In this document: positions 4,020 through 18,386 of the stretch, piece by piece
How positions within the stretch are numbered: position 1 is the stretch's first letter
How the letters are laid out: the number at the start of each line of letters is the position of its first letter
Source of the DNA: Trueperaceae bacterium
Lineage (GTDB): Bacteria > Deinococcota > Deinococci > Deinococcales > Trueperaceae
Direction: 5' to 3'
DNA: 38,439 nucleotides
Assembly (NCBI GenBank): GCA_035703635.1
Contig: DASSXV010000064.1
Span: forward strand, 1 to 38,439
Translations under genes and position numbers: made by a program
Notes under the pieces: generated by a model
What the model was told of the DNA's origin: nothing
The model's input: only the letters and a program-made list of their open reading frames with translations
Databases searched by the model: none

Positions 4020-6752
<2,733 letters not shown>

Positions 6753-6853
6753 GTTCGCTCCTTGTCTAGTGTCGAAGCTCGTGCGCCATGGGGCCGCCAG
6801 CCGAGGCGGCATACTGCCCTCACGCATCCAATCTTGCCGCTACTCTAAGTGAT

Positions 6854-7561
6854 ATGACAGGGCCACAATCACCTAGACGTTACGCGGATACCGCTGGCGA
6901 CGAGGCCGTCCCGGCGCACGGGGCGCGCACGCGCATCATCACCGAGGCGCAAGCGGCAGACGCACTCACCAGCCCAGCGAGCCTCCGCCACCTCGCCCCC
7001 TTCATCGGACGCGCGGTCAGCGTGACCACGGCGGCGCAAGAGAGCAACGAGAAGGCCAACACCACCCTCAAGCGCGTGCAGCGCTTCGTGAACCTAGGTC
7101 TGGTCGAGGTGGCTGGCTTGGTCCCGCGGGCTGGCCGGCCGATAAGGCTTTACCGCTCGACGGCCGAGGTGTTCTTCGTGCCGTTCGAGGTGACGCACTC
7201 TGAGTCCCTCGAGGCTGCCTTGGCCGAGCGCGACGACTACTGGGAGCGCCTCTTGCGCCGCAACGTCGTGCGGGGGCGACGCGAGGCGCTCGGTGAGTGG
7301 GGCACGCGCTTCTACCGCGATCGGCGCGGGCGCCTGCAAGTGCAGACGGCGGTGACTCCCGACGTCAACGCCACCACCCTAGACGCGGAGGCGCCTGCGA
7401 CGCTCTCGCTATGGAGAGACCAGGTTCAACTGGACTTCGCGGACGCCAAGGAGCTGCAGCGCGAGATGTTCGCGCTGGTGCAGCGCTACCAACGCCACTC
7501 CGGCTCCCAGCGCTACGTCGTCCGCATGGGCTTGGCGCCCGTGCTCGAAGAGGTCGAGTGA
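6854..7561 (+). CDS. ArsR-like winged-helix DNA-binding protein, divergent from acnA
   Basis: ALTSPASLRHLAPF...SVTTAAQ...VQRFVNLGLVEV...RAGRPIRLYRS wHTH pattern; TACTCT 7 nt upstream of ATG 6854. Confidence 0.7.
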   Translation: MTGPQSPRRYADTAGDEAVPAHGARTRIITEAQAADALTSPASLRHLAPFIGRAVSVTTAAQESNEKANTTLKRVQRFVNLGLVEVAGLVPRAGRPIRLYRSTAEVFFVPFEVTHSESLEAALAERDDYWERLLRRNVVRGRREALGEWGTRFYRDRRGRLQVQTAVTPDVNATTLDAEAPATLSLWRDQVQLDFADAKELQREMFALVQRYQRHSGSQRYVVRMGLAPVLEEVE

Positions 7562-7614
7562 TGACCTCCACGAGTTGGTCACGCCACTCACGCGCCACCT
7601 GGTTAGCATTAGGG

Positions 7615-8007
7615 ATGATGCACTCCAGTCCAACCGCCCACTTCCACATCAGCGCCCGCACGCCGGTGGCTGCGAGGCGCCTGGCGCTCATCGCCCCTCT
7701 CCTGCTCGTGCTCGCGGCCTGCGCACCTGGCGCGTTCGGTCCCGGCGCCTCCACCGACCCCGTCTCGGCAGAGTTGGAGCGCACCGCTCAGGTCCTCTTC
7801 CACCGCATGGAACTAGGTCACCTGGAGGCGGGTGTCTACACCACCAACGCCCTCATCGACGTGAAGCTGCCGGAGGGCGCGCGCTGGACGCTCCAAGAGT
7901 TCGCGTCAGACGGCTCGAGTTACGTACTGACGCTGACGTCATCGCGGCTGCCTGGCGTGGGGTGGCGCGTTTCACCCCGCGGAGTCTCACAGTTCAACCC
8001 CGGTTGA
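7615..8007 (+). CDS. Putative lipoprotein
   Basis: Lipobox LLLVLAAC after basic residues; start uncertain (7561, 7615 or 7618). Confidence 0.65.
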   Translation: MMHSSPTAHFHISARTPVAARRLALIAPLLLVLAACAPGAFGPGASTDPVSAELERTAQVLFHRMELGHLEAGVYTTNALIDVKLPEGARWTLQEFASDGSSYVLTLTSSRLPGVGWRVSPRGVSQFNPG

Positions 8008-8030
8008 CGCCGCCTAACTGAACGCAAGCG

Positions 8031-8065
8031 AAGGGGGTCAGGGCCGAACCCGGCCCCGACCCCTT
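8031..8065. terminator. GC-rich hairpin between convergent genes (probable terminator)
   Basis: AAGGGG-GTC-A-GGGCCG-AACC-CGGCCC-C-GAC-CCCTT; no long U tract. Confidence 0.6.
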
Positions 8066-8086
8066 ACGCACTAGCGTGAAGTGCGC

Positions 8087-8416
8087 TTAGACCCCGACTG
8101 GTAGGTGCTTCGTCAGGCGAGCCTGGTACGCCGACTTCGGTTGGGCGCCGACCATGACTTCTACCGGCTGCCCGTCCTTGAAGAGCATGACGGTAGGGAT
8201 GCTCATGACGCGGAACTCCTGCGCCACACGCATGTTGTCATCGACGTTGAGCTTGCCGACCTTGACCTTGCCCGTGTATTCACCCGCCAGCTCCTCGATA
8301 ACGGGTCCGACCATCCGACAAGGGCCGCACCATGGCGCCCAGAAGTCAACCAGTACGAGGCCCTTGCCCGTTTCGCTAGCGAAGTTGCTGTCAGTGAACT
8401 CGACGGTGTTAGCCAT
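8087..8416 (-). CDS. trxA: Thioredoxin
   Basis: [22 protein letters not shown]. Confidence 0.97.
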
Positions 8417-8523
8417 CAGATCTACTCCTCAAATCGGGCGCTGCTTGCGCCGTTACTAACCCTAGAGTATGTGCCAAGTCGAACTTCTCCATGTAACCAG
8501 CTAGACACCGGCGGCTGGACGCA

Positions 8524-9723
8524 CTAGTCACGCCCCTCGGCGCTCCACGCGACGAGCGCCGTGGCTGGCGCGCCACGCGCTACGCGCGGAGGCGTGACGC
8601 CGAGCGCCTGGTGCCCCCCCTTGACGGCGGCCCGCACGGCGGCCCGGGGGTTCAGGCCTGCGCCCTGTTGCTCGAGTGCCGCCATGACTTCGGCGGTGAC
8701 GTCGAGGTCGGGGCTCGAGCCGCGCGAGTCGGTCCCGAAGGCTAAAGCAACGCCGTGGCGCGCGTACATGGCCCACGGGAAGCTGCCGCACTCGAGGGCG
8801 GCGTTCGACCTTGGGCAGTGGACGACGACCGCGCCAGAGCGGGCGATGAGCCGCACGTCGCTCTCGTCGACCTGCACCCCATGAACCAGCGTCGGTGCCG
8901 CATCGAGCACCCCGAGTTCGTCGAGGTAACGCACGGGGGAGCCGCCTGTCGCTTGAAAGGCGAAGCCGGCGGCCGCCAACGCTTCAGCCAACTGGCCGCT
9001 GCCGCGCTCATGGAGTTCGCGTTCCGCTGGGGCTTCGGCGACGTGGATGGCGAGTGGGATGCGCTCGGCCCTGGCGAAAGCGACGAGGCGCTGCAGCAGC
9101 GGCGCGCTTACGGTATGCGGCGTGTGCGGCGAGAGCCCTACGCGCATGCCGCCCACGCGCTGCAGGGCCCTGAAACGCGTGAGGCGTCGCACCGTCGCCT
9201 CGAAGACGGCGTCCGCGTCCTCTCGGCGTGGGGCGAAGACCTCCCAGTACGCAACGCCTCCAACGGCCGTTTGCGACAGGAGCAGCTCCATGACGCCTTC
9301 GTCGGTGACGACGTCTCCGATGATGGTGGTGCCGTTAGCCGCGAGTTCGGCTAGGCCGCTCCGCGCTGCCGCCAACCCCCGTCCGCCACTACTGGCGTGC
9401 GCCACGACCGTGGCGATGAAATCCACGTACGCGCCAGGCGTGTACGTCATGTGCGAGAGGTCGAGGTGCGTGTGGGCGTTCACGACGGGCGGTGAGACGG
9501 CGAATCCACAATCCAGCAGGGCGGCGTCCGGGTAGGCCGCCGTGGCGTCCACGCTGCTCGTCACGTTGACGATGCTGCTTACGCCCGGAGCCCGCTGCAC
9601 GACCACGGCCCCGTCGGCTCTAGGAAGGCCAAGGCCGTCATATACGACGTCCGCTCGCGCCACGACCCGCCCAAGCGCGGCAGGCGCTGACCCGATCAGC
9701 CTCTCAAGTTGACTCGTGGCCAC
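8524..9723 (-). CDS. Amidohydrolase, probable 6-amino-6-deoxyfutalosine deaminase
   Basis: NAHTHLD, SPHTPH, HVAE, VHG, CPRSN, GTDS metal-binding motifs; 11 nt downstream of mqnC. Substrate inferred from context. Confidence 0.75.
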   Translation of the reverse strand: MATSQLERLIGSAPAALGRVVARADVVYDGLGLPRADGAVVVQRAPGVSSIVNVTSSVDATAAYPDAALLDCGFAVSPPVVNAHTHLDLSHMTYTPGAYVDFIATVVAHASSGGRGLAAARSGLAELAANGTTIIGDVVTDEGVMELLLSQTAVGGVAYWEVFAPRREDADAVFEATVRRLTRFRALQRVGGMRVGLSPHTPHTVSAPLLQRLVAFARAERIPLAIHVAEAPAERELHERGSGQLAEALAAAGFAFQATGGSPVRYLDELGVLDAAPTLVHGVQVDESDVRLIARSGAVVVHCPRSNAALECGSFPWAMYARHGVALAFGTDSRGSSPDLDVTAEVMAALEQQGAGLNPRAAVRAAVKGGHQALGVTPPRVARGAPATALVAWSAEGRD

Positions 9724-9734
9724 GAGGAAAGCGC

Positions 9735-10916
9735 CTAGCCAACTGACGCGTCAGAACCAGCCACCGCGACCCTGGCCGCGAGCTGCCCGGAAGGCGCGCT
9801 AGCGGCGCTGGGGAGCTGAAACTCGCGCGGGTCGACGCGGCGCAGGATGCCGTACAGCGAGTCGCGTTGCGCTGGCTCGTAACCGGCGTCGACGATCTGG
9901 CGCACGATCTCGCTCTCAGGGGTGTTGCTGTGCTTGGCGCCAGCTTGTGAAACGACGTTCTCCTCGAGCATGGTGGAGCCGAAGTCGTTGCAGCCGAAGT
10001 AGAGCGCTGTCTGCGCGACCTTGTAACCCATGGTCGGCCACGAGGCCTGAAAGTTCACGACGTTGTCTAGCAACAGGCGGCTGACGGCGACGTTCTGCAG
10101 GTACTCGTGAGCGCCCGCGCCCGGCGCCTTGCCCTCGATGCGCACCCCTTGCGTCTGCAGCGTCCAGGAGATGAACGCCGAGAAGCCGTTGCCGTGGCTA
10201 GCGAGGGCACGGTCCTGTTGGTCGCGAACGCGCATGAGGCTCTCCACGCGCTGCTTCGGCGTCTCGCCGAAGCCGATCACCATGGTGGCCGTCGTGTACA
10301 GGCCCAACGACTGCGCCTCGCCCATGACCCGGATCCAGTCGTCAGAGGAGATGCGCCCTGGGGAAACGTAGCGTGCGAGCCGCACCTCGTCGACGAGCAT
10401 CTCGCCTCCGCCGCCAGGTAGGCCGTCTAGGCCGGCAGCTTGTAGTTCGACGAGGACGTTGCGGGTAGTCATGCCCGTCAACTCCGCCATGCCCCTGATC
10501 TCCTCTGGGCTGAACGCCTCGACGCGGATGGTCGGGTGGTTCAGCTTGAGGTGGCGCATGAGCTCCAGGTACCAGTCGAACGGGAGGTAGCGGTTGACCC
10601 CGCCCTGCATGAGGATGCGGCTCCCGCCTACGTTCTCGAGTTCGACGATCTTCTGCGAGATCTGCTCGTACGAGAGGGTGTACGAGTCGTCCTGGCGCCG
10701 GGTGCGGTAGAAACCGCAGAAAGCGCAGCCGACGGAGCAGACGTTCGAGTAGTTGATGTTGCGGTCGATCAGGTAGGTGACCGTCTTCGGGTCGGTACGC
10801 ATGTTGCGCACGGCGTCGGCGGCGGCCGCGAGGTCGAATAGCGGCAAGTCGTACAGCTGGACGGCTTCGTCTGGTGTGAGGCGGGCACCTGACGCCGCCT
10901 TGCCTAACAGGCTCAT
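9735..10916 (-). CDS. mqnC: Cyclic dehypoxanthinyl futalosine synthase (radical SAM)
   Basis: IDRNINYSNVCSVGCAFCGF (CxxxCxxC), LPGGGGEML, QASW, GCNDFGSTMLEENVVSQAG. Confidence 0.9.
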   Translation of the reverse strand: MSLLGKAASGARLTPDEAVQLYDLPLFDLAAAADAVRNMRTDPKTVTYLIDRNINYSNVCSVGCAFCGFYRTRRQDDSYTLSYEQISQKIVELENVGGSRILMQGGVNRYLPFDWYLELMRHLKLNHPTIRVEAFSPEEIRGMAELTGMTTRNVLVELQAAGLDGLPGGGGEMLVDEVRLARYVSPGRISSDDWIRVMGEAQSLGLYTTATMVIGFGETPKQRVESLMRVRDQQDRALASHGNGFSAFISWTLQTQGVRIEGKAPGAGAHEYLQNVAVSRLLLDNVVNFQASWPTMGYKVAQTALYFGCNDFGSTMLEENVVSQAGAKHSNTPESEIVRQIVDAGYEPAQRDSLYGILRRVDPREFQLPSAASAPSGQLAARVAVAGSDASVG

Positions 10917-11014
10917 GCCGAAAGCATAGCACCGGGCACCTAGGCGCCTAGGCCGTCAGCGAGCGGAGCAGCAAGTTGTGTACTCCGCCGTCGACCACCA
11001 GGTAAACTAGAAGT

Positions 11015-14000
11015 ATGTCCAGTAACGCTCCGCAAGAAGCGGCAAGCCCCTGGCGCCTCCTGTTCGAGAACGTCCGCAAAGCGATCGGCCAGAAGCGTGA
11101 CGAGAACGGCGTCGTAGGCAGCATCAACTGGTTGCGGGGCGCCATGGAGTCTCATGGCGCCAACCCGAACGTGGTCCGCAACATCATCTACCGCGACAAG
11201 GGCCGCATCCCCGACAAGCGCGCCCTCTTCGTCATACTCGACGGGCTCTGGCAGCAGGCAGGCAACCCACCCCTCGACATGCCAGACCTGCAAGCGGTCC
11301 TCTCCCCCACCGCCAGCGCCGAGCAAGAAGTCCTGCAACTCCTTGGCCGCGATAAGCGCAGGGCGTACCGCGCCATCGTCGGCGGCATGCAGGCTGGCGA
11401 GATGCCGAAAGTCTTGGTCACCGGCAGGCCCGGCTCCGGCAAGACCCTGCTAACCGACTACGTCCGTCAAGGCGTCGAGCTCGACGGTGCCTCCGAACTC
11501 GAGATCGTGAGGTTGGAGTTCGGCAGCTCAGAGTTGGCCACGTCACTGACGCGCATGGCCAACGAGCTAGGCGTTCCGGCAGAGGTGATGGAGTCGCGTC
11601 TCGTGCGCATCGCCACGGCCAGCGCCTTCTCGGTGCAGGCAGACGCCCAGGCGGAGGTGGCGCGCGTCATCCTGGACGCGGTCAGGAGCCGCCAAGGCCC
11701 GCTCCTGCTGCTCTTGCACGTGTCGCAGGCGCTCGCTAACCAGGACGCGCTCGGGCTGGTCGCCTTGCGCCTCAACACGCCCGAGGTACCGCGGGTAAGC
11801 GCTAGCGAGTGGCTGTGGGTGACGCTTTTCGAGCCCCTCGCAAGGCAACCTAACGTGGCGCTGTTCGTGACCATGACGGACCTACCGGCCAGGGCGATGC
11901 AGCGCCTCGGGAACTTCACGGACCCCATCAGGCTCACTCCCCCAACCGCGGCCGAGGCACGCCGCTTCGTCAAGGCGCGCATGCCGCACCTGACCGCCAG
12001 TCAACAAGAAGAGATCGTGCAGCGGGCTGGACGCTCGTTCGAAGAGCTACGCACCCTCACCCTGCTGGCGCAGGCGCGGGCACCGCAGGAGACGGGCGAA
12101 CTGCTCGACGAGCACCACATCGAACAGCTCTCACGCCTCGTGACGGCGGGCGACGCCGATCTCCGCAACTTCCTAGCGGCGCTAGCGGTGCTGTCACCGG
12201 CGGAGTTCCCCGTCTTCGCGGCCGCGACGTTGCAGCGGGTCAGGGACGTCGACCGCGATCTCGGCGCTTTCGAGCTCTCGTTCCTCGACGTCGTGCCAGG
12301 GCAGCCGGGCCGTTACCGTTCGTTCTCCAGGCAGCTAGCGCGCGCGCTGCAAGCGCGGCTGAAGGCCGCCGAGCCGGAAGCGTACCGCCGTGCCCAAAGC
12401 GCCGCCGCCGCCACGTACCTCGCGGAAGCGCAGGCCGATCCGGCCAGCGACGCCGGCGCCCGCTACTTACACCATCTGTTCGAGGCCCGCGACTGGCTGG
12501 CTCTCACGCAGTGGCTGGCCGCCCACTCCGTCTCTCACGCTCAAGTGCGCCAGGTGTGGCACGCGGCCGCGGCGGAGCTGCCTGCCGGGCCAGCGTTCGA
12601 CGCCGTCGCCAAGGAAGTCGCTGCGCACTTCGTCAAGCTCGGCGCGTACCAGCACCCTGAGGCCGTCAATGCCTTCGAGGCGGCCGCGGCATCCAGCGAT
12701 CAGGCGCTGCGGGCATGGACGCTCGTCAAACGCGCTGAGGGCGAGGCGCTCGGCGGTCGCTTCGAGCGCGCCGAGGTCCTGCTTGACACTGCCCCGACGA
12801 TCGACGCGCCCCTCTTGCGCGCCGAGTACGCCCTGGCGCGCGCCAGCATCGCGCGGTGGCGCAGTGACCTAGACAGCGCCGCCAAGCTCGTCACGGAGTC
12901 AGTGCGCCGCGAACTGCGCCAGGTGACGCCAACGACTCACGAAGCGCGCCTCGTGTTCGCCAAAGCCAAGGTCTGGGAGGGCCTGATCGCGAAAGACCAA
13001 GGCGACTTGGTCGCTGCCCTCGCCCGCTTCGACGAGGCGGAGTCGGATGACGACCTCGTCCGCGCCCGCATCGAGTTCCAACGCGGCGACGTCGCCATGC
13101 GCCTAGGCCGCCTTGACGCGGCGCTCACGGCGCTCGACGACGCCGTGCTACTAGCGCAGCGCTCCGAAGCCCTCCCCCAAGAGCGCACTCGCTACCTCGC
13201 GCGCCGCGGGAGCGTGCGACGCCTGCGCGGCGACCTGACCGGCTCCGTGGCCGACTTCGACGCCGCCCGCGCCCAGCTCGAGCTGGCGGAGGCAGCGGAC
13301 GGCGAGGCGGACTTCTGGCGCGCGCGCGTAGCAGACGAGTCGTCCCTGACGGCGCTTGCCCTAGGCGATTACGAGGAGGCAACCTACGCCATCACGCACG
13401 CCCTCGCCGGCTTCCGCAACTACGCCGCCGCGCGCGGTACCGAAGCCGACTACCGCGTGCTGCGCGCGACTCTCAACCTGGCGGTCGCCTACGCCTGCCG
13501 CGGCCTGGCATTGCCATACCGGAGGCCGTTCCCGACCCTCCGCGAGAACCTCGACTCACCAGACCTGCGCCACGCACGCAGCCGCATCGAGGAGGTCCTG
13601 ACTTCCCTGACTGGCAGCGGCGTTCACCGCGACTTCTTGCACTTCCAGGCGCGCCTGCTAGCCAGTCAGTTCGCCATCACGGGCCCCGAAGCACTCAAGC
13701 ATGCGGAGGCGGCGCTCGCCAACGCCAACTTCGACTACCAGCGCGCCCTCGCCCTGAGCGCCCGGGCTGCGGCGCACCTGCGCCTCCAGGAGCCACAGGC
13801 CGCACTGGAAGACGTCCGCGCCGCGGAACTGCTGCTCCGCGCCGATGCGCCTAGCGAGAGCAGCGACACGGGACTGCGTGCGCAGCTCAAGGCGCTAGCC
13901 ATCGACGTCCACTTCCACTGCGGCAAGGCCGAGCAGGCCGCCGAAGCGCTCGCAGACGGGCTCGACGACGAGACCCTCTACCCGCACCACGAGGGGCTCC

Positions 14001-14173
14001 TGCGCGCGTTCGGCGAGTCGGCGGACGAGCGTCAGGTGGGCGAGGCGTGGAAGAAGCACCGACGCCTCAGGACGCTGCTCGGCCTGGATGGCACCGGTCC
14101 ATCCACGCCGGCGCGGCTGCCGGACGCGCTAGTGGCATCCTGGCGGAGCCGCAACCGCGTGGCCGTGGCTTAG
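11015..14173 (+). CDS. Large protein: putative N-terminal HTH-like domain + STAND-like P-loop + TPR-like repeats
   Basis: LLGRD motif, Walker A GRPGSGKT, Walker B position PLLLLLH, C-terminal helical repeats (e.g. RGDVAMRLGRLDAALTALDDA; RGSVRRLRGDLTGSVADFDAA); TAAACT 6 nt upstream of the ATG. Confidence 0.8.
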   Translation: MSSNAPQEAASPWRLLFENVRKAIGQKRDENGVVGSINWLRGAMESHGANPNVVRNIIYRDKGRIPDKRALFVILDGLWQQAGNPPLDMPDLQAVLSPTASAEQEVLQLLGRDKRRAYRAIVGGMQAGEMPKVLVTGRPGSGKTLLTDYVRQGVELDGASELEIVRLEFGSSELATSLTRMANELGVPAEVMESRLVRIATASAFSVQADAQAEVARVILDAVRSRQGPLLLLLHVSQALANQDALGLVALRLNTPEVPRVSASEWLWVTLFEPLARQPNVALFVTMTDLPARAMQRLGNFTDPIRLTPPTAAEARRFVKARMPHLTASQQEEIVQRAGRSFEELRTLTLLAQARAPQETGELLDEHHIEQLSRLVTAGDADLRNFLAALAVLSPAEFPVFAAATLQRVRDVDRDLGAFELSFLDVVPGQPGRYRSFSRQLARALQARLKAAEPEAYRRAQSAAAATYLAEAQADPASDAGARYLHHLFEARDWLALTQWLAAHSVSHAQVRQVWHAAAAELPAGPAFDAVAKEVAAHFVKLGAYQHPEAVNAFEAAAASSDQALRAWTLVKRAEGEALGGRFERAEVLLDTAPTIDAPLLRAEYALARASIARWRSDLDSAAKLVTESVRRELRQVTPTTHEARLVFAKAKVWEGLIAKDQGDLVAALARFDEAESDDDLVRARIEFQRGDVAMRLGRLDAALTALDDAVLLAQRSEALPQERTRYLARRGSVRRLRGDLTGSVADFDAARAQLELAEAADGEADFWRARVADESSLTALALGDYEEATYAITHALAGFRNYAAARGTEADYRVLRATLNLAVAYACRGLALPYRRPFPTLRENLDSPDLRHARSRIEEVLTSLTGSGVHRDFLHFQARLLASQFAITGPEALKHAEAALANANFDYQRALALSARAAAHLRLQEPQAALEDVRAAELLLRADAPSESSDTGLRAQLKALAIDVHFHCGKAEQAAEALADGLDDETLYPHHEGLLRAFGESADERQVGEAWKKHRRLRTLLGLDGTGPSTPARLPDALVASWRSRNRVAVA

Positions 14174-14184
14174 GTGATGCCCGC

Positions 14185-14814
14185 GTGGCGCTAGCGGCCG
14201 CGGACGACCCCAAGGCGCCCGCCGCCACCGTCACCGCAGGCATCGACCATGCGGCGCTTGCTCGCCTCCTGCCGCATGGTGACCTGAAGAACTTCCGCCC
14301 ACCCGCACAGCAACTGGCGGCCCTCGTAGACATCGCGGGCGATCCGCGCGGCTGCGTCGCCGCGGCGGTGGCCGGCGACACCCTAGTCGGTTACGTGGCG
14401 TTTCACCCCCCGACAGAAGTCGAGTCCTGGGGCGCAGACCGCACCGGTGAGCTCGTCGAGTTAGGCGCCATGGAGGTCGCGTCTGGTTTCCGCGGCCAAA
14501 ACCTCGCCCGCCGGCTCCTCGCAGCGAGCTTCGCCGATCAGCGTTTCGATGCCGCAGTAGTTTTCGCCACCCTCTACTCGTGGCATTACGACCTCAAGAG
14601 GGCCGACCTGACCGACCTCGCCTACCGGAGGATGTTGGAGCGGCTCTACCGGAGCGCCGGTTTCGAGGTCTACCCGACGAGCGATGAGGAGATCCGCAGC
14701 AGCGCGGCCAACGCCCTGATGGCGCGCATCGGCCCAGAGGCGCCCGCCGCCGTGGTCGCTGAGTTCCACCGCCTCCGTAAGTTCCAGCCGGAGACGCTCA
14801 CGAGCGCCTGGTAG
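14185..14814 (+). CDS. acuA: AcuA-type GNAT protein lysine acetyltransferase
   Basis: FRPPAQQLAALVDIAG, VGYV, ELGAMEV, WHYDLK, ANALMARIG closely follow Bacillus AcuA; GTG 14185 with TAGGTGA SD. Confidence 0.88.
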   Translation: MALAAADDPKAPAATVTAGIDHAALARLLPHGDLKNFRPPAQQLAALVDIAGDPRGCVAAAVAGDTLVGYVAFHPPTEVESWGADRTGELVELGAMEVASGFRGQNLARRLLAASFADQRFDAAVVFATLYSWHYDLKRADLTDLAYRRMLERLYRSAGFEVYPTSDEEIRSSAANALMARIGPEAPAAVVAEFHRLRKFQPETLTSAW

Positions 14815-14836
14815 CATCGATTCAGAGGAGCAATAC

Positions 14837-15487
14837 ATGCTGGTGAACGAGATAATGACCCGCAAGGTCGTCGCCATCGGCCCCGACACCCCGATCCGAG
14901 ACGTGCAACTGCTCATGGAGCAGCGCAACATCAGGCACTTCCCCATCTTGGAGGAGCGCAGCAAAGGCGCGTTGGACAGCCTCGTAGGTATCGTCTCCGA
15001 CCGCGACCTGCGGCTCGTGGGTGCGGATCACCCAAGGGCGCCAGCCAACGTCACCGCCGCCGACCCCGTCAAGCGCGTCATGGTCACGAACGTGCTCGTC
15101 GCGCACCCTGACGACCCCATCGAGGAGACGGCGAAAGTCCTGCGCGACAACAAGATCGGCGCCATGCCAGTCATGGACGACGGCCGGCTCGTTGGCATCG
15201 TCACCGGGATAGACATGCTCGACGCGCTCATCTTCATGTCTGGCGTGCGTGAGGCCTCAAGTCGCCTCGAGGTCGAGCTAGCGGATAGGCCGGGCGCGTT
15301 GGCCGGGTTGCTCGACCGCGTCGCCAGCCGCAACGTGAACGTCTCGAGCGTGATGACCTCGCGGGCGGACGAGGGCAGCGTCGCCTTCGTGCTGCGCGTT
15401 GGCACCTTCGACGGTCACGGGCTAGCCGATCACTTGCGCGGCCTCGGCTACAACGTCCTGTGGCCACCTGAGGCAAGCGAAGCGTGA
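14837..15487 (+). CDS. acuB: AcuB: tandem CBS domains + ACT domain
   Basis: IRHFPI, GIVSDRDLR, KIGAMPV, GIVTGID; ACT motif DRPGALAGL...NVSSV; GAGGAG SD; position between acuA and acuC. Confidence 0.88.
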   Translation: MLVNEIMTRKVVAIGPDTPIRDVQLLMEQRNIRHFPILEERSKGALDSLVGIVSDRDLRLVGADHPRAPANVTAADPVKRVMVTNVLVAHPDDPIEETAKVLRDNKIGAMPVMDDGRLVGIVTGIDMLDALIFMSGVREASSRLEVELADRPGALAGLLDRVASRNVNVSSVMTSRADEGSVAFVLRVGTFDGHGLADHLRGLGYNVLWPPEASEA

Positions 15488-16704
15488 GCGCCGCCACTCC
15501 GAGGAGTGGCCCCACTCGGCGGGTCGTGTTCGTGCACGACCCCCGCATGGCGCAGTTCGAACTACACGCCGACCACCCCTTCAAGCCCATCCGCATGGAG
15601 TTGACGCGCTCGCTGCTAGTCCACGCGGGCCTCCTCGAGCAAGCCGAGGTGATCGCGCCGCGGCCGCCGAACGACGACGACCTCCTCACCGTTCACGCGC
15701 CCGATTACGTCGAGGCGGTGCGGGAGCTCTCGGCGGGAGGCCCGCAGACAGACGCCGCCCGCTACGGCCTCGGGACGGCGGACAACCCGATCTTCCCTGG
15801 CATGCACGGACTCGTGTCCTTGATCTGCGCCGGAACGGTGACGGCCATGGACAGCGTGGCGACGGGCGCCGCGCTGCGGGCGGTGAACCTCGGCGGCGGC
15901 CTGCACCACGCTATGCGCGCCCGCGCGTCCGGCTTCTGCCTCTACAACGACCTGGCGTTGGCCATCAGACGCGCAGTCGACGTCCACGGACTGCGGGTGG
16001 CGTACGTAGACCTCGACGCCCACCACGGCGACGGGGTGCAGTGGCTGTTCTACGACGACCCCAACGTCATGACGATCAGCCTCCACGAGTCGGGGCACTA
16101 CCTCTTCCCCGGCACTGGCCACACGTACGAGACCGGCAAGGGCGCTGGCCGCGGTCTAAGCGTCAACGTCCCGCTCGAGCCTTACACGGAGGACGCCTCC
16201 TACTTAGCCGCCTTCGACGCCGTCGTGCCAGCGGCGCTACGCGCCTTCGCGCCCGACGTCATCCTCCTGCAAGCGGGCGCAGACCCGCACCGCTACGATC
16301 CGCTGGCCGACCTGTCCCTCACGCTTACCGGCATGCGCGACTCCTACCGGCGGGTCGTGGCGTTAGCGGACGAGCTGACAGGCGGGCGGCTCGTCGCGAC
16401 CGGCGGCGGCGGCTACGACCCATACCGCACGGTCCCGCGTGCCTGGGCGCAGCTGTGGGCCGCAGTCACAGGCCGCGAGGTGCCAAGCAGCTTGCCGGAC
16501 GCATGGCTCGAGGAGTGGCGCGACCTGTTGCCGTCAGGGTCGGAACTCCCGCGCTTAGCGCTCGACGGGCAAGGTGACTTCCCGCCGCGGCCGAAGCGCG
16601 AGCAGATCACACGGCGCAACGGCGTCGTCGCCCAACGCGTCGTCGAGGCACTTGCCGCCGTCTGGCAGGACACCGGCCTCGGCGGCGCGGTAACCTCACG
16701 CTGA
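15484..16704 (+). CDS. acuC: AcuC Zn-dependent (HDAC-like) protein deacetylase
   Basis: HPFKPIR, GGGLHHA, SGFCLYND, DLDAHHGDGVQ, SLHESG..LFPGTG, QAGADPH..DPL, GGGGY. Confidence 0.93.
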   Translation: MSAATPRSGPTRRVVFVHDPRMAQFELHADHPFKPIRMELTRSLLVHAGLLEQAEVIAPRPPNDDDLLTVHAPDYVEAVRELSAGGPQTDAARYGLGTADNPIFPGMHGLVSLICAGTVTAMDSVATGAALRAVNLGGGLHHAMRARASGFCLYNDLALAIRRAVDVHGLRVAYVDLDAHHGDGVQWLFYDDPNVMTISLHESGHYLFPGTGHTYETGKGAGRGLSVNVPLEPYTEDASYLAAFDAVVPAALRAFAPDVILLQAGADPHRYDPLADLSLTLTGMRDSYRRVVALADELTGGRLVATGGGGYDPYRTVPRAWAQLWAAVTGREVPSSLPDAWLEEWRDLLPSGSELPRLALDGQGDFPPRPKREQITRRNGVVAQRVVEALAAVWQDTGLGGAVTSR

Positions 16705-16720
16705 AATCGGAGGGTGCGAT

Positions 16721-17608
16721 ATGCGCATCGGGTTCATCGGGCTAGGCACCATGGGAGCGCCCATGGCGCACAGGCTCATAGCGGCGGGCTACGAGGTCAC
16801 GGTCCATAACCGCACGCGCGCCAAGGAGGAGCCGCTCGTGGCCGCTGGCGCCGCGCGCGCGACCTCACCACGCGCTTGCGCCGAGGGCCAGGACGTCGTC
16901 TTCACCATCGTCTCCGACACGCCCGACGTTCAGGCAACCGTACTCGGCGACCAGGGCGCATCGCAGGGGATGTCTCCCGGCAGCATCCTCGTCGACATGA
17001 GCACCATCAGCCCCATGACGACGCGGCGCATAGCAGCCGCCCTCGCTGAACACGACATCACCATGCTCGACGCGCCCGTGTCGGGCGGCTCCGAGGGCGC
17101 CGTGAACGGAACGCTCTCGATCATGGTCGGCGGCGACCCTGTCGCGCTCGCACGCGTGCGGCCGGCGCTGCAACACCTCGGTAAGCTCGTCACGCACGTT
17201 GGACCCGTGGGCAGTGGGCAGGTCGCCAAGGCCGTCAACCAGGTGATCATCGCCGGCACTTACGCGTCCGTTGCGGAGGGCATGACCCTCGCACTGGCCG
17301 CCGGCATCGACGTCGAGGCGACCCTTACGGCGCTCGGGGGCGGCGCCGCTGGCTCGTGGGTGCTAGCCAACCGCGCGAAGAACATGCTTGCTGACGAGTA
17401 TCCGCTCGGTTTCCGCACGCGCCTTCACCGCAAGGACCTCGGAATAGCGCTCGGCACCGCCCGTGACTTGGGCGTGAGCATGCCAGTGGCCGCGTACGTC
17501 GAGCAGCTCGAAACTAGCCTCGTTGCCCGCGGCTTAGGCGATGAGGACATGTCCAACATCGCTCGCGTCGTGCGCGAGCAGGCAGGGATGCGGTCCAGCG
17601 AGGACTGA
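16721..17608 (+). CDS. NAD(P)-dependent beta-hydroxyacid dehydrogenase (tartronate-semialdehyde reductase/3-hydroxyisobutyrate dehydrogenase family)
   Basis: GFIGLGTMG, DAPVSGG, KAVNQ, LHRKDL; GGAGGG SD. Confidence 0.9.
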   Translation: MRIGFIGLGTMGAPMAHRLIAAGYEVTVHNRTRAKEEPLVAAGAARATSPRACAEGQDVVFTIVSDTPDVQATVLGDQGASQGMSPGSILVDMSTISPMTTRRIAAALAEHDITMLDAPVSGGSEGAVNGTLSIMVGGDPVALARVRPALQHLGKLVTHVGPVGSGQVAKAVNQVIIAGTYASVAEGMTLALAAGIDVEATLTALGGGAAGSWVLANRAKNMLADEYPLGFRTRLHRKDLGIALGTARDLGVSMPVAAYVEQLETSLVARGLGDEDMSNIARVVREQAGMRSSED

Positions 17609-17627
17609 AGCGCTCCGTGCTCCTAAC

Positions 17628-18386
17628 CTAGGCGGGGCGCCGTGCCACGACCCAGATGCGCTCTGCATCTGGTTGTGCCAGCTCACCGTCTGGGAACTCG
17701 AGTGCGGTTGCCCCCTCGAACCCGGCGGCCGCCAACAAGCGCATGAGGTCGGGCTCGTCGTAGCCACGCTCCGTATGCACTTCCGTGAACGAGGCATCGC
17801 CCGTCTCGCAGTAGGCCGCCACCGTCGCTAGGCCGGTAGCCTCATCGTAGACGTGACTCCAGCGGTAGTAGACCTCGTCCGCCCACCCTTCCGCCACCCC
17901 GCCGTGCCAGAGCTCACGCAGGCCGACGCTCGTGTTCACGTCGAAGATGAACAGGCCACCGGGCCGCAAGTGTGCGTGCACGCGCGCTAGGCACGCGGCG
18001 AACGCCTCATCTGTTAGCAGGTTGTTGAGTGCGTCGAACACCGAGTAGATGAGCGCGTACTTGCCAGGCAACGCGAACTCCTCGAAGGTGCCTTGCGTGA
18101 AGCGGATGCCGGGGAGCTTACGCCGCGCGACCTCCAGCATGGCGGCGCTGGCGTCCAACCCCTCGACGGCGTACCCGCGCTGCCACATCGGCAACGTCGC
18201 GTTGCCTGTGCCGCAACCGAGGTCGAGGAGCGGCCCCTTCTTGAGGCCGTGCTGCTCGGCGACGGCGCAGATGAACTCCGCCCAGTCGTCGTACTCGACC
18301 TCGGCCATGATGGTGTCGTAGACGGTGGCAAGCGAAGTGTACGGCGCGGTGGTTTCTAACGGTGTGGGTTTGGTGCTGGCTGTCAC
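17628..18386 (-). CDS. Class I SAM-dependent methyltransferase
   Basis: LDLGCGTG, GLDASAAML, DALNNL, HLRPGGLFIFDVNT. Confidence 0.88.
   Translation of the reverse strand: MTASTKPTPLETTAPYTSLATVYDTIMAEVEYDDWAEFICAVAEQHGLKKGPLLDLGCGTGNATLPMWQRGYAVEGLDASAAMLEVARRKLPGIRFTQGTFEEFALPGKYALIYSVFDALNNLLTDEAFAACLARVHAHLRPGGLFIFDVNTSVGLRELWHGGVAEGWADEVYYRWSHVYDEATGLATVAAYCETGDASFTEVHTERGYDEPDLMRLLAAAGFEGATALEFPDGELAQPDAERIWVVARRPA

Follow-up and report, generated by a model that had tools for sequence, protein, structure and literature searches.

A STAND-like gene at the head of an acuABC operon in Trueperaceae: a candidate autoregulated transcription factor for acetate/C2 metabolism and its paralogue linked to isocitrate lyase

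The acuABC operon of Bacillus lies divergent from acsA, the gene for acetyl-CoA synthetase. According to the available text of two reports, AcsA is inactivated when AcuA acetylates it and is restored by AcuC, which in turn is inhibited by AcuB, a protein that binds adenine nucleotides or Ap4A (PMC13121692, PMC13039410). The available text of the first of these places the B. subtilis acetylation site at K549, the lysine of a conserved C-terminal motif, and describes control by CcpA and cre for Bacillus (PMC13121692). A second group of described systems comprises the STAND regulators MalT, GutR and AfsR. In these, a helical-repeat sensor comes after a P-loop nucleotide-binding oligomerization domain (NOD) that includes a winged helix, and the DNA-binding effector joined to the NOD is of LuxR type in MalT and of SARP type in AfsR, where it is N-terminal. 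The GutR effector domain is N-terminal as well. In STAND regulators, binding of an inducer and of ATP releases autoinhibition, as given in the available text of PMC10936776. The locus analysed here is from a Trueperaceae bacterium of the Deinococcota (assembly GCA_035703635.1, contig DASSXV010000064.1), in a stretch of 38,439 nt termed the window. It has a gene for a STAND-like protein of 1052 amino acids (aa), the large gene, immediately upstream of acuABC. We give about an even chance to the reading that the large protein acts as a STAND transcription factor in acetate/C2 metabolism, regulates its own gene and has AcuABC expressed along with it.

Five co-oriented open reading frames (ORFs) are present at positions 11015–17608 on the plus strand, with successive spacings of 11, 22, -4 and 16 nt. 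They are the large gene (11015–14173, ATG start), acuA (14185–14814), acuB (14837–15487), an acuC-like gene (15484–16704) and a gene for a beta-hydroxyacid dehydrogenase (16721–17608). A -10 hexamer, TAAACT (11003–11008), is positioned 6 nt ahead of the ATG at 11015 and is of the leaderless type. This arrangement is as given in a preliminary description of the locus, including the spacings and the hexamer. The same description named the divergent gene as mqnC and reported no acsA in the window, and both statements hold. The best model for the minus-strand gene at 9735–10916, a radical SAM gene with Pfam domains Radical_SAM and CofH_C, is MqnC (TIGR03699, 416.1 bits, which is under the cut-off of 428.1). 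There is no acsA within the window; matches of the genome to TIGR02188 are on contigs C56, C86, C33 and C49, not on the window's contig (C50). The order of acuA, acuB and acuC is the same as in Bacillus, but the Bacillus layout of acsA divergent from acuABC is not found, as the divergent gene is mqnC and acsA is on C56. Also unlike Bacillus, acuABC is flanked by a STAND-like gene ahead of acuA and a dehydrogenase gene after acuC. Control by CcpA and cre is not expected in this operon.

The whole 1052-aa protein has no match in Pfam or NCBIfam at E ≤ 1e-3. Searches with parts of the protein give sub-threshold matches to AAA_16 (2.8e-4) and TPR_16 (4.4e-3). A family assignment at the sequence level by phmmer against solved chains failed, the sole match being a designed repeat protein (E 0.0065). 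Many homologues carry Pfam AAA_16 and TPR_1, TPR_2, TPR_8 or TPR_12 domains in a precomputed table. Structure modeling was carried out for residues 1–470 from an alignment of 29 N-terminal halves. The model has a predicted local distance difference test score (pLDDT) of 87.4 and a predicted template modeling score (pTM) of 0.78. It displays a helical N-domain (12–126), a P-loop alpha/beta domain (132–310), a helical domain (312–393) and a winged helix (400–436). The last three represent the NOD (residues 132–436, positions 11408–12322). A Foldseek search gives 262 chains at E ≤ 0.001, with MalT (8bob_C, 7.6e-8) and Apaf-1 (1z6t, 3.4e-7) at the top. Further matches are to Orc/Cdc6, Avs3, plant nucleotide-binding leucine-rich repeat proteins (NLRs) of the NRC/ZAR1 type, NOD2, CED-4 and the STAND-TPR protein 6mfv; the probability is 1.00 for MalT, Apaf-1, CED-4, NOD2, the plant NLRs and 6mfv. 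The Walker A motif is present (GRPGSGKT, residues 137–144), and G137, G142 and K143 are invariant in the 29 sequences. The C-terminal region (12422–14170) is probably a TPR-like helical repeat, as judged from the sub-threshold TPR matches and the TPR domains of the homologues, and is the presumed sensor. The modeled fold and the domains of the homologues thus support a STAND-like protein in which a TPR-like tail comes after the P-loop NOD. The preliminary description had called it a STAND-like P-loop/TPR protein, and the model, the Foldseek matches and the TPR domains of the homologues agree with that.

The arrangement of a P-loop NOD with a winged helix and then a presumed helical-repeat sensor is shared with MalT, GutR and AfsR, and MalT is the best match to the modeled fold. 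Unlike these, the large protein fits no Pfam or NCBIfam family, lacks a canonical Walker B acid and has a candidate effector that is weakly XRE-like, and its gene heads the operon that it would control. The term STAND-like is used on the basis of fold, and not canonical STAND ATPase, because the Walker B acid is missing. The strand at residues 229–236 (PLLLLLHV, positions 11699–11722) ends in His235 in type A proteins, the window's kind, and in Arg in a second branch, type B, described below. Just after this region there is a conserved insert (LRLNTPEVPRV) with the invariant residues Arg252 and Trp266. Sequence comparison places the large protein in an undescribed Deinococcota family, of which it represents the type A branch.

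The presence of Avs3 (8dgc_A, 2.8e-6) among the fold matches brings in the explanation that the large protein is an antiviral defence protein of the Avs/NLR kind, located here by chance. We give this explanation almost no weight. The gene is single-copy, is at one chromosomal place in 32 of 36 genomes and has conserved neighbours. The Pfam scan revealed no killing domain, such as a nuclease or a protease. PADLOC assigned no family to the protein; there was only an 11.6-bit match (E 0.034) over 18 P-loop residues, and the defence explanation was dropped for this reason.

Conservation within the family is highest in the N-terminal domain, where S36, W39, L40, R55, I57, Y59 and G63 are invariant in the 29 sequences. 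Residues 12–96 (positions 11048–11302) represent a candidate helix-turn-helix (HTH) of the XRE/lambda-repressor kind, with a helix at 37–46, a turn, and a helix at 51–60. Type A and type B proteins show hardly any variation in the putative recognition helix, VRNI[IL]Y[RK]D. The domain folded alone has a pLDDT of 81.8. Foldseek with this fold gives nothing at E ≤ 0.001, and its sub-threshold rows are of the XRE/lambda-repressor kind. With VIA-align, most of the 50 best rows are XRE/lambda-repressor HTH domains (HipB, C.Kpn2I, HigA2, the cyanase N-domain, ComR and ClgR) at Z values of 3.6–4.7, a range that the tool flags as common for unrelated helical domains. Language-model neighbours of residues 8–100 are clusters of HTH_3, HTH_26 and HTH_31 at 0.77–0.84, which is a lead only. 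A profile of the domain searched against solved structures found no HTH and no meaningful relative. The three weak methods concur and none favours another fold, and the N-domain is quite probably an XRE-like HTH. This would set it apart from the LuxR effector of MalT and the SARP effector of AfsR.

An alignment of the spacers upstream of the large gene in related loci reveals a conserved block, TGTGTAC, usually followed by (Y)TGTWTAC. It is located 17–21 nt before a TAnnnT -10 sequence, which is itself about 6 nt before the start codon, the same place as TAAACT. In the window the TGTGTAC word is at 10977–10983 on the plus strand and overlaps the -35 region of the large gene's promoter. Ninety non-redundant loci (925,576 nt) contain 92 exact copies of TGTGTAC on both strands, and 71 of these are found between -140 and -25 of the large gene, on the strand of the gene, in 66 of the 90 loci. 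The less strict forms TGTNTAC or TTGTACY are present in that upstream region in 84 of 88 sequences. In 61 family genomes there are 15 copies of the exact 15-mer. Eleven of these are at the large gene's promoter (assigned via coordinates or via the following ORF), and the reversed control occurs once. The remaining copies that were inspected are inside recG, or beside a kinase-like gene and a BTAD gene. Within the window alone TGTGTAC is at chance level, with one copy found and 1.98 expected, and the evidence for it is the conservation across loci. In the window's genome (2.9 Mb) there are 39 copies of TGTGTAC, and the composite with a -10 sequence and a start codon is unique to the large gene. 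In a relative that does not have the large gene (locus L052), a word of the TGTGTAC type is absent from the spacer between mqnC and acuA. Five other copies of TTGTGTACT in the window's own genome are not in a clear promoter context, and no regulon beyond the large gene's own operon was found in that genome or among the 15-mer copies of the family genomes. The element is thus specific to the large gene's promoter and makes a good candidate operator for autoregulation. In one sub-lineage (L088, L094, L096, L100 and L108) there is an extra copy of TGTGTACC about 70–80 nt upstream of the promoter-proximal one. A second copy is as would be expected of a two-site operator.

The second branch of the family was separated from the first by searching 200 genomes of the order with a distant homologue from locus L034. 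Type A was found only in Trueperaceae. Type B proteins are approximately 920–1000 aa, have the same three-part architecture and show about 33% identity to type A over the whole length. Their Walker A motif often has GK-G instead of GK-T. Type B is present in 52 of 52 genomes of one family of the order (f4), 45 of 53 of another (f2), 1 of 23 (f3), 0 of 19 (f5) and 7 of 53 Trueperaceae (f1); the proteins in these seven Trueperaceae show 49–56% identity. Isocitrate lyase (PF00463) is distributed in the same way: 52 of 52 in f4, 45 of 53 in f2, 1 of 23 in f3, 0 of 19 in f5 and 7 of 53 in Trueperaceae. The same f3 genome and the same seven Trueperaceae genomes carry both. The two presence tables, compared by eye, give 104 genomes with both genes and 94 with neither; in the other two, G106 and G211, they disagree. 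A search with PF00463 found no isocitrate lyase in the window's own genome, which is 97.65% complete.

Thirty-five type B loci were compared, 15 plus 20 that were hand-picked to spread over genera. Isocitrate lyase or malate synthase is within about 6 kb of type B in 17 of these, from three families (L034 at 4558–8772, L033, L038, L040, L140, L142, L145–L152, L154, L156 and L157), in co-directional, divergent and convergent layouts. In f4 the isocitrate lyase gene is directly upstream and co-directional in 10 of 15 loci. Shunt genes are near type B in four of eight Trueperaceae loci, two of them with convergent malate synthase and isocitrate lyase genes, in three of 11 f2 loci (one divergent, two co-directional) and in none of one f3 locus. 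Three of the type B loci without isocitrate lyase end at contig edges. The order in L034 is isocitrate lyase (NF011645, 765 bits), type B, SufC, SufB and SufD. In a table in the available text of PMC7662524, TTHA1836 of Thermus thermophilus HB8 is isocitrate lyase and TTHA1838–1840 are SufCBD; from gene order alone, we infer that type B is the gene between TTHA1836 and TTHA1838. No publication on the locus tag next to TTHA1836, and no description of a glyoxylate-shunt regulator of Thermus or Deinococcus, was found in the literature searched, subscription journals being outside its scope. Type B is a candidate for such a regulator in both genera.

The regions upstream of type B were analyzed for 6-mers with no motif chosen beforehand, and the most enriched, TATACA, GTATAC, ATACAC, ACACTA and AGTGTA, are present at 29–40 times expectation. 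Upstream of isocitrate lyase, CTACAC and GGTGTA are second and third at 9–10 times expectation; the first, GGTTTA, at 16 times, comes from only four sequences. These words form inverted repeats such as GGTGTATACACC or GGTGTAG-N-CTACACC. Repeats with GGTGTA..TACACC arms (also TTGGTGTAGG-N12-CCTACACCAA) are found upstream of isocitrate lyase and malate synthase in L147 and L033, and upstream of type B in L146, L148 and L150. GTGTA or TACAC occurs at least once upstream of type B in 32 of 35 loci, upstream of isocitrate lyase in 11 of 16 and upstream of malate synthase in two of two. Among the remaining intergenic gaps of these loci, 12 of 98 contain such a word. GTGTA words are about eight times commoner at the promoters of the three genes than in the remaining gaps. 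Two or more copies are present upstream of type B in 16 of 35 loci, versus one of the 98 remaining gaps. In four of the five isocitrate lyase upstream regions without these words, isocitrate lyase follows malate synthase. The type A word TGTGTAC contains the GTGTA core of the type B words.

The two branches are therefore alike in their three-part architecture, in a putative recognition helix that is nearly identical, and in promoter words with a GTGTA core. They differ in that type B tracks isocitrate lyase and malate synthase, not acuABC, and has sites that look like inverted repeats (GGTGTA..TACACC). The shared core together with the near-same recognition helix favours a DNA-binding regulator; the argument is circumstantial, and the large protein probably is such a regulator. 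A wider reading is put forward tentatively. A dedicated Deinococcota family of HTH-NOD-TPR transcription factors for acetate/C2 assimilation would read GTGTA-core operators, one branch switching the glyoxylate shunt in Thermus, Meiothermus-like bacteria, Deinococcus and a few Trueperaceae, and the other driving itself, AcuABC and the dehydrogenase in Trueperaceae that have no shunt.

Two further features of type B loci were observed. In Deinococcus-like loci a DUF3208 gene often follows type B (L041, 8851–9276; L035, L042, L045 and L155). A conserved word, AGTATACACA, is present about 110–130 nt upstream of Deinococcus-like type B genes.

A different explanation of the promoter words is that the large protein is a STAND ATPase that does not bind DNA. 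Its N-domain would contact a protein, and another factor or a special sigma factor would read TGTGTAC. This is consistent with HTH evidence that is under every significance threshold and with the location of the element at the -35 position, and a separate acetate regulator could account for the GTGTA words upstream of isocitrate lyase and malate synthase. However, the three weak methods are independent and give an XRE-type HTH and nothing else, and the putative recognition helix is near-invariant in two branches that both have GTGTA-core words at their own promoters. Nor is the element a general promoter feature, as only one of the 39 TGTGTAC copies in 2.9 Mb has a -10 sequence and a start codon. 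We consider this explanation distinctly improbable.

The large protein was found in 47 of 61 related genomes, and in 32 of 36 within Trueperaceae. Comparison of gene neighbourhoods was made with 80 public-genome loci, of which 67 have at least 1200 nt downstream and are evaluable for downstream genes. A separate set of 30 loci gives the same picture, several of its genomes overlapping with the 80. The surveyed genomes are related, and the counts of loci are therefore not independent events. The acuA, acuB and acuC genes are directly downstream of the large gene, in this order, in 39 of the 67 loci (32 with the dehydrogenase gene next and seven without it). Eight loci have acuB, acuC and the dehydrogenase gene, one has acuC and the dehydrogenase gene, and three have shorter partial forms. 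The remaining 16 have no acu gene downstream; nine of these have the dehydrogenase gene alone and seven have none of the four. The large gene thus persists without acuA in nine loci, without acuA and acuB in one and without any acu gene in 16, and its most persistent downstream neighbour is the dehydrogenase gene. On the upstream side, mqnC and an amidohydrolase gene are present in 47 of 70 loci, and mqnC alone or with the amidohydrolase gene in 49 of 70. The linkage is real, is old within Trueperaceae, and is optional. The preliminary description had proposed a module of acetylation writer, eraser and energy sensor coupled to a STAND-type protein. The linkage itself stands, being present in many genomes (39 of 67 loci) of Trueperaceae only; the module as a fixed system does not, since it is confined to one family and each part occurs alone.

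These data also bear on the explanation that the locus represents inherited gene order only, where the large protein is a regulator or signalling ATPase with another purpose and co-transcription has no regulatory meaning. The inherited block would consist of the amidohydrolase gene, mqnC, the large gene, acuA, acuB, acuC and the dehydrogenase gene, and would be eroding in Trueperaceae. The block is found throughout the family and decays piecemeal among the 67 loci, as this explanation would have it. Relative L052 has the same block in the same place without the large gene (amidohydrolase, mqnC, then acuA, acuB, acuC and dehydrogenase). The families f3 and f5 have acuA in six of six and five of six genomes, with acuABC clusters that have other neighbours and no large protein; in f2 and f4 the large protein is represented solely by distant homologues (about 33% identity), and acuA is present in none of six genomes each. 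Within Trueperaceae the phyletic link is weak: 24 of 36 genomes have both the large gene and acuA, eight the large gene only, three acuA only and one neither. Yet in this genome the 11-nt spacing, with no terminator found, would put acuA under the large gene's promoter; the element is nearly confined to that promoter, so that the operon is what the element can control; and the cargo of both paralogous branches concerns acetate/C2 use. On balance, inherited order alone seems unlikely, although it is the alternative with the most in its favour.

TPR repeats are common protein-binding modules. The TPR region could be a scaffold for AcuA, AcuB or AcuC, or the large protein could itself be acetylated and deacetylated by them. 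Gene order and tight spacing are what speak for such coupling at the protein level. Against this, each partner is dispensable to the other across relatives, and loss of AcuA comes first, with the large gene still in place (8 + 1 + 1 loci). In Bacillus, moreover, the AcuA-AcsA complex (PMC11910552) and the AcuB-AcuC complex (PMC13039410) form without a STAND-type partner, according to the available text of these reports. Coupling of this kind is highly improbable. The preliminary description had left regulator, scaffold and substrate side by side as roles for the large protein; regulator fits best, given the HTH-like N-domain, the promoter element and the shunt-linked paralogue, and scaffold and substrate are unsupported.

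In the reading as an autoregulated regulator, acuABC and the dehydrogenase gene would be expressed from the large gene's promoter because they follow it at spacings of 11, 22, -4 and 16 nt. In a simple scan of 10800–17900, no sigma-70-like promoter was recognized. A scan for terminator-like sites found one, on the minus strand, versus 2.3 expected from shuffled sequences, and none between the operon genes. Contigs from four RNA-library runs of three studies cover most of 10900–17700. One of these, X15 (1328 nt, 13265–14592, with 10 differences), bridges the junction of the large gene and acuA at 14173/14185. Assembled contigs cannot show a single transcript, a start or a strand, and X15 is weak support for the operon.

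Genes 2 to 4 had been named acuABC in the preliminary description, and solved relatives of AcuA and AcuB and a class I histone deacetylase (HDAC) family match identify them as that set, as far as sequence comparison goes. The start of acuA is putative, an in-frame GTG at 14185 that gives 209 aa and is inside a longer listed frame (14047–14814). Residues 25–200 of this AcuA align with 30–205 of the 210-aa B. subtilis AcuA (chain 9g7f_C). Its Pfam domain is the GNAT domain Acetyltransf_1, as for a lysine acetyltransferase, and its top solved relatives are AcuA 9g7f_C (3.3e-36) and 2q04 (2e-35). The acuB product (216 aa) has a CBS-CBS-ACT arrangement, with CBS at 94.9 bits over two stretches plus ACT. 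Its top solved relatives are AcuB of G. stearothermophilus (9s4w, 9.7e-29), TTHA0829 (5awe, 2e-23) and B. subtilis AcuB. The 406-aa product of gene 4 matches Hist_deacetyl at 297.7 bits and has HDAC6, HDAC1/2/3/8 and HDLP as solved relatives. No AcuC-specific model matched it in the NCBIfam scan and no AcuC chain is among its solved relatives, and it is assigned at the level of the class I HDAC family. Gene 5 encodes a 295-aa protein of the 3-hydroxyisobutyrate dehydrogenase (HIBADH) or tartronate-semialdehyde-reductase type, with NAD_binding_2 and NAD_binding_11; it matches TIGR01505 at 288.3 bits, under the cut-off of 340.75.

The acsA gene that is missing from the window is on contig C56 (39791–41644), with 992.8 bits to TIGR02188 versus a cut-off of 724.95. 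Its neighbours are unrelated, a TrkH-like gene and a glycosyltransferase-like gene. The encoded AcsA retains LPKTRSGKIMRR, which is aligned to the corresponding stretch in the solved Acs 2p20 and has the lysine-bearing PKTRSGK motif, as in the Bacillus system. By analogy, there is no apparent reason for the AcuABC module to work other than as in Bacillus, and this is not a new kind of acetylation machine. A second gene of the CBS/ACT type is found elsewhere in the same genome (G000, contig C15, 78833–79045). Thermus TTHA0829 may be an orthologue of this C15 paralogue and not of the operon-borne AcuB, because the paralogue fits a TTHA0829-like ACT model far better (95.8 bits versus 33.7 bits).

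The mechanism that we infer for the regulator would be similar to that of MalT, GutR and AfsR. The repeat region would sense a ligand, and this, combined with the binding of a nucleotide, would switch the large protein into a DNA-binding form. The N-domain of the switched protein would bind the element of the TGTGTAC(Y)TGTWTAC type that overlaps the -35 region of the large gene's leaderless promoter. AcuA, AcuB, AcuC and the dehydrogenase would be made from this promoter, and hence be under control of the large protein. AcuABC would then act in trans on AcsA encoded on another contig, with AcuA inactivating it, AcuC reactivating it and AcuB restraining AcuC according to adenine nucleotides. 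An acetate/C2 theme is proposed because the type B branch tracks isocitrate lyase.

Several observations weigh against this mechanism and the reading on which it is built. No Asp or Glu is present at the strand end, where the Walker B acid (hhhhD[DE]) would be located, in any of the 29 sequences. Because the canonical acid is not seen, hydrolysis, and perhaps the switch cycle, may differ from that of MalT; the protein could possibly bind nucleotide without normal hydrolysis. The N-domain gave no Foldseek match at the threshold, its Z values are common among unrelated helical domains and its profile found no HTH. The type A sites look like direct repeats and the type B sites like inverted repeats, and TGTGTAC could be part of an unusual -35 sequence or the site of another factor. 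The weak correlation of the large gene with acuA within Trueperaceae is a further point of this kind. The bridging of the two genes is by one contig of one run, and DNA carry-over in that library is possible because another contig of the same run extends past the operon into the convergent gene. Finally, acuA may have an internal transcription start.

The divergent gene mqnC shares the leaderless geometry of the large gene (10917–10928, minus strand): a -10-like TATGCT at 10923–10928, a putative promoter element, is followed by 6 nt and the ATG. A block, GCATAGCACCG, is conserved at the mqnC end of the spacer across most related loci. The spacer also has a perfect 14-bp palindrome, CCTAGGCGCCTAGG, at 10939–10952. 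It was considered as an operator and dropped because conservation fails already in the closest relative (L060), which has a 96% identical protein.

AcuABC is understood in Bacilli, and here it is wired behind a STAND-type sensor rather than CcpA control. Nothing relevant was found on acetoin utilization in Truepera in the literature searched, with subscription journals outside the scope. If the regulator reading is true, one metabolite sensor would set both the transcriptional and the post-translational control of acetate activation. The more interesting result extends beyond the five genes, to an undescribed Deinococcota-wide family of putative regulators, the second branch of which follows the glyoxylate shunt. 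Type B co-occurs almost perfectly with isocitrate lyase and is a candidate that is directly testable in Thermus thermophilus, which is genetically tractable. The family also adds a divergent STAND branch without the usual Walker B acid, which bears on how such proteins may switch without normal ATP hydrolysis.

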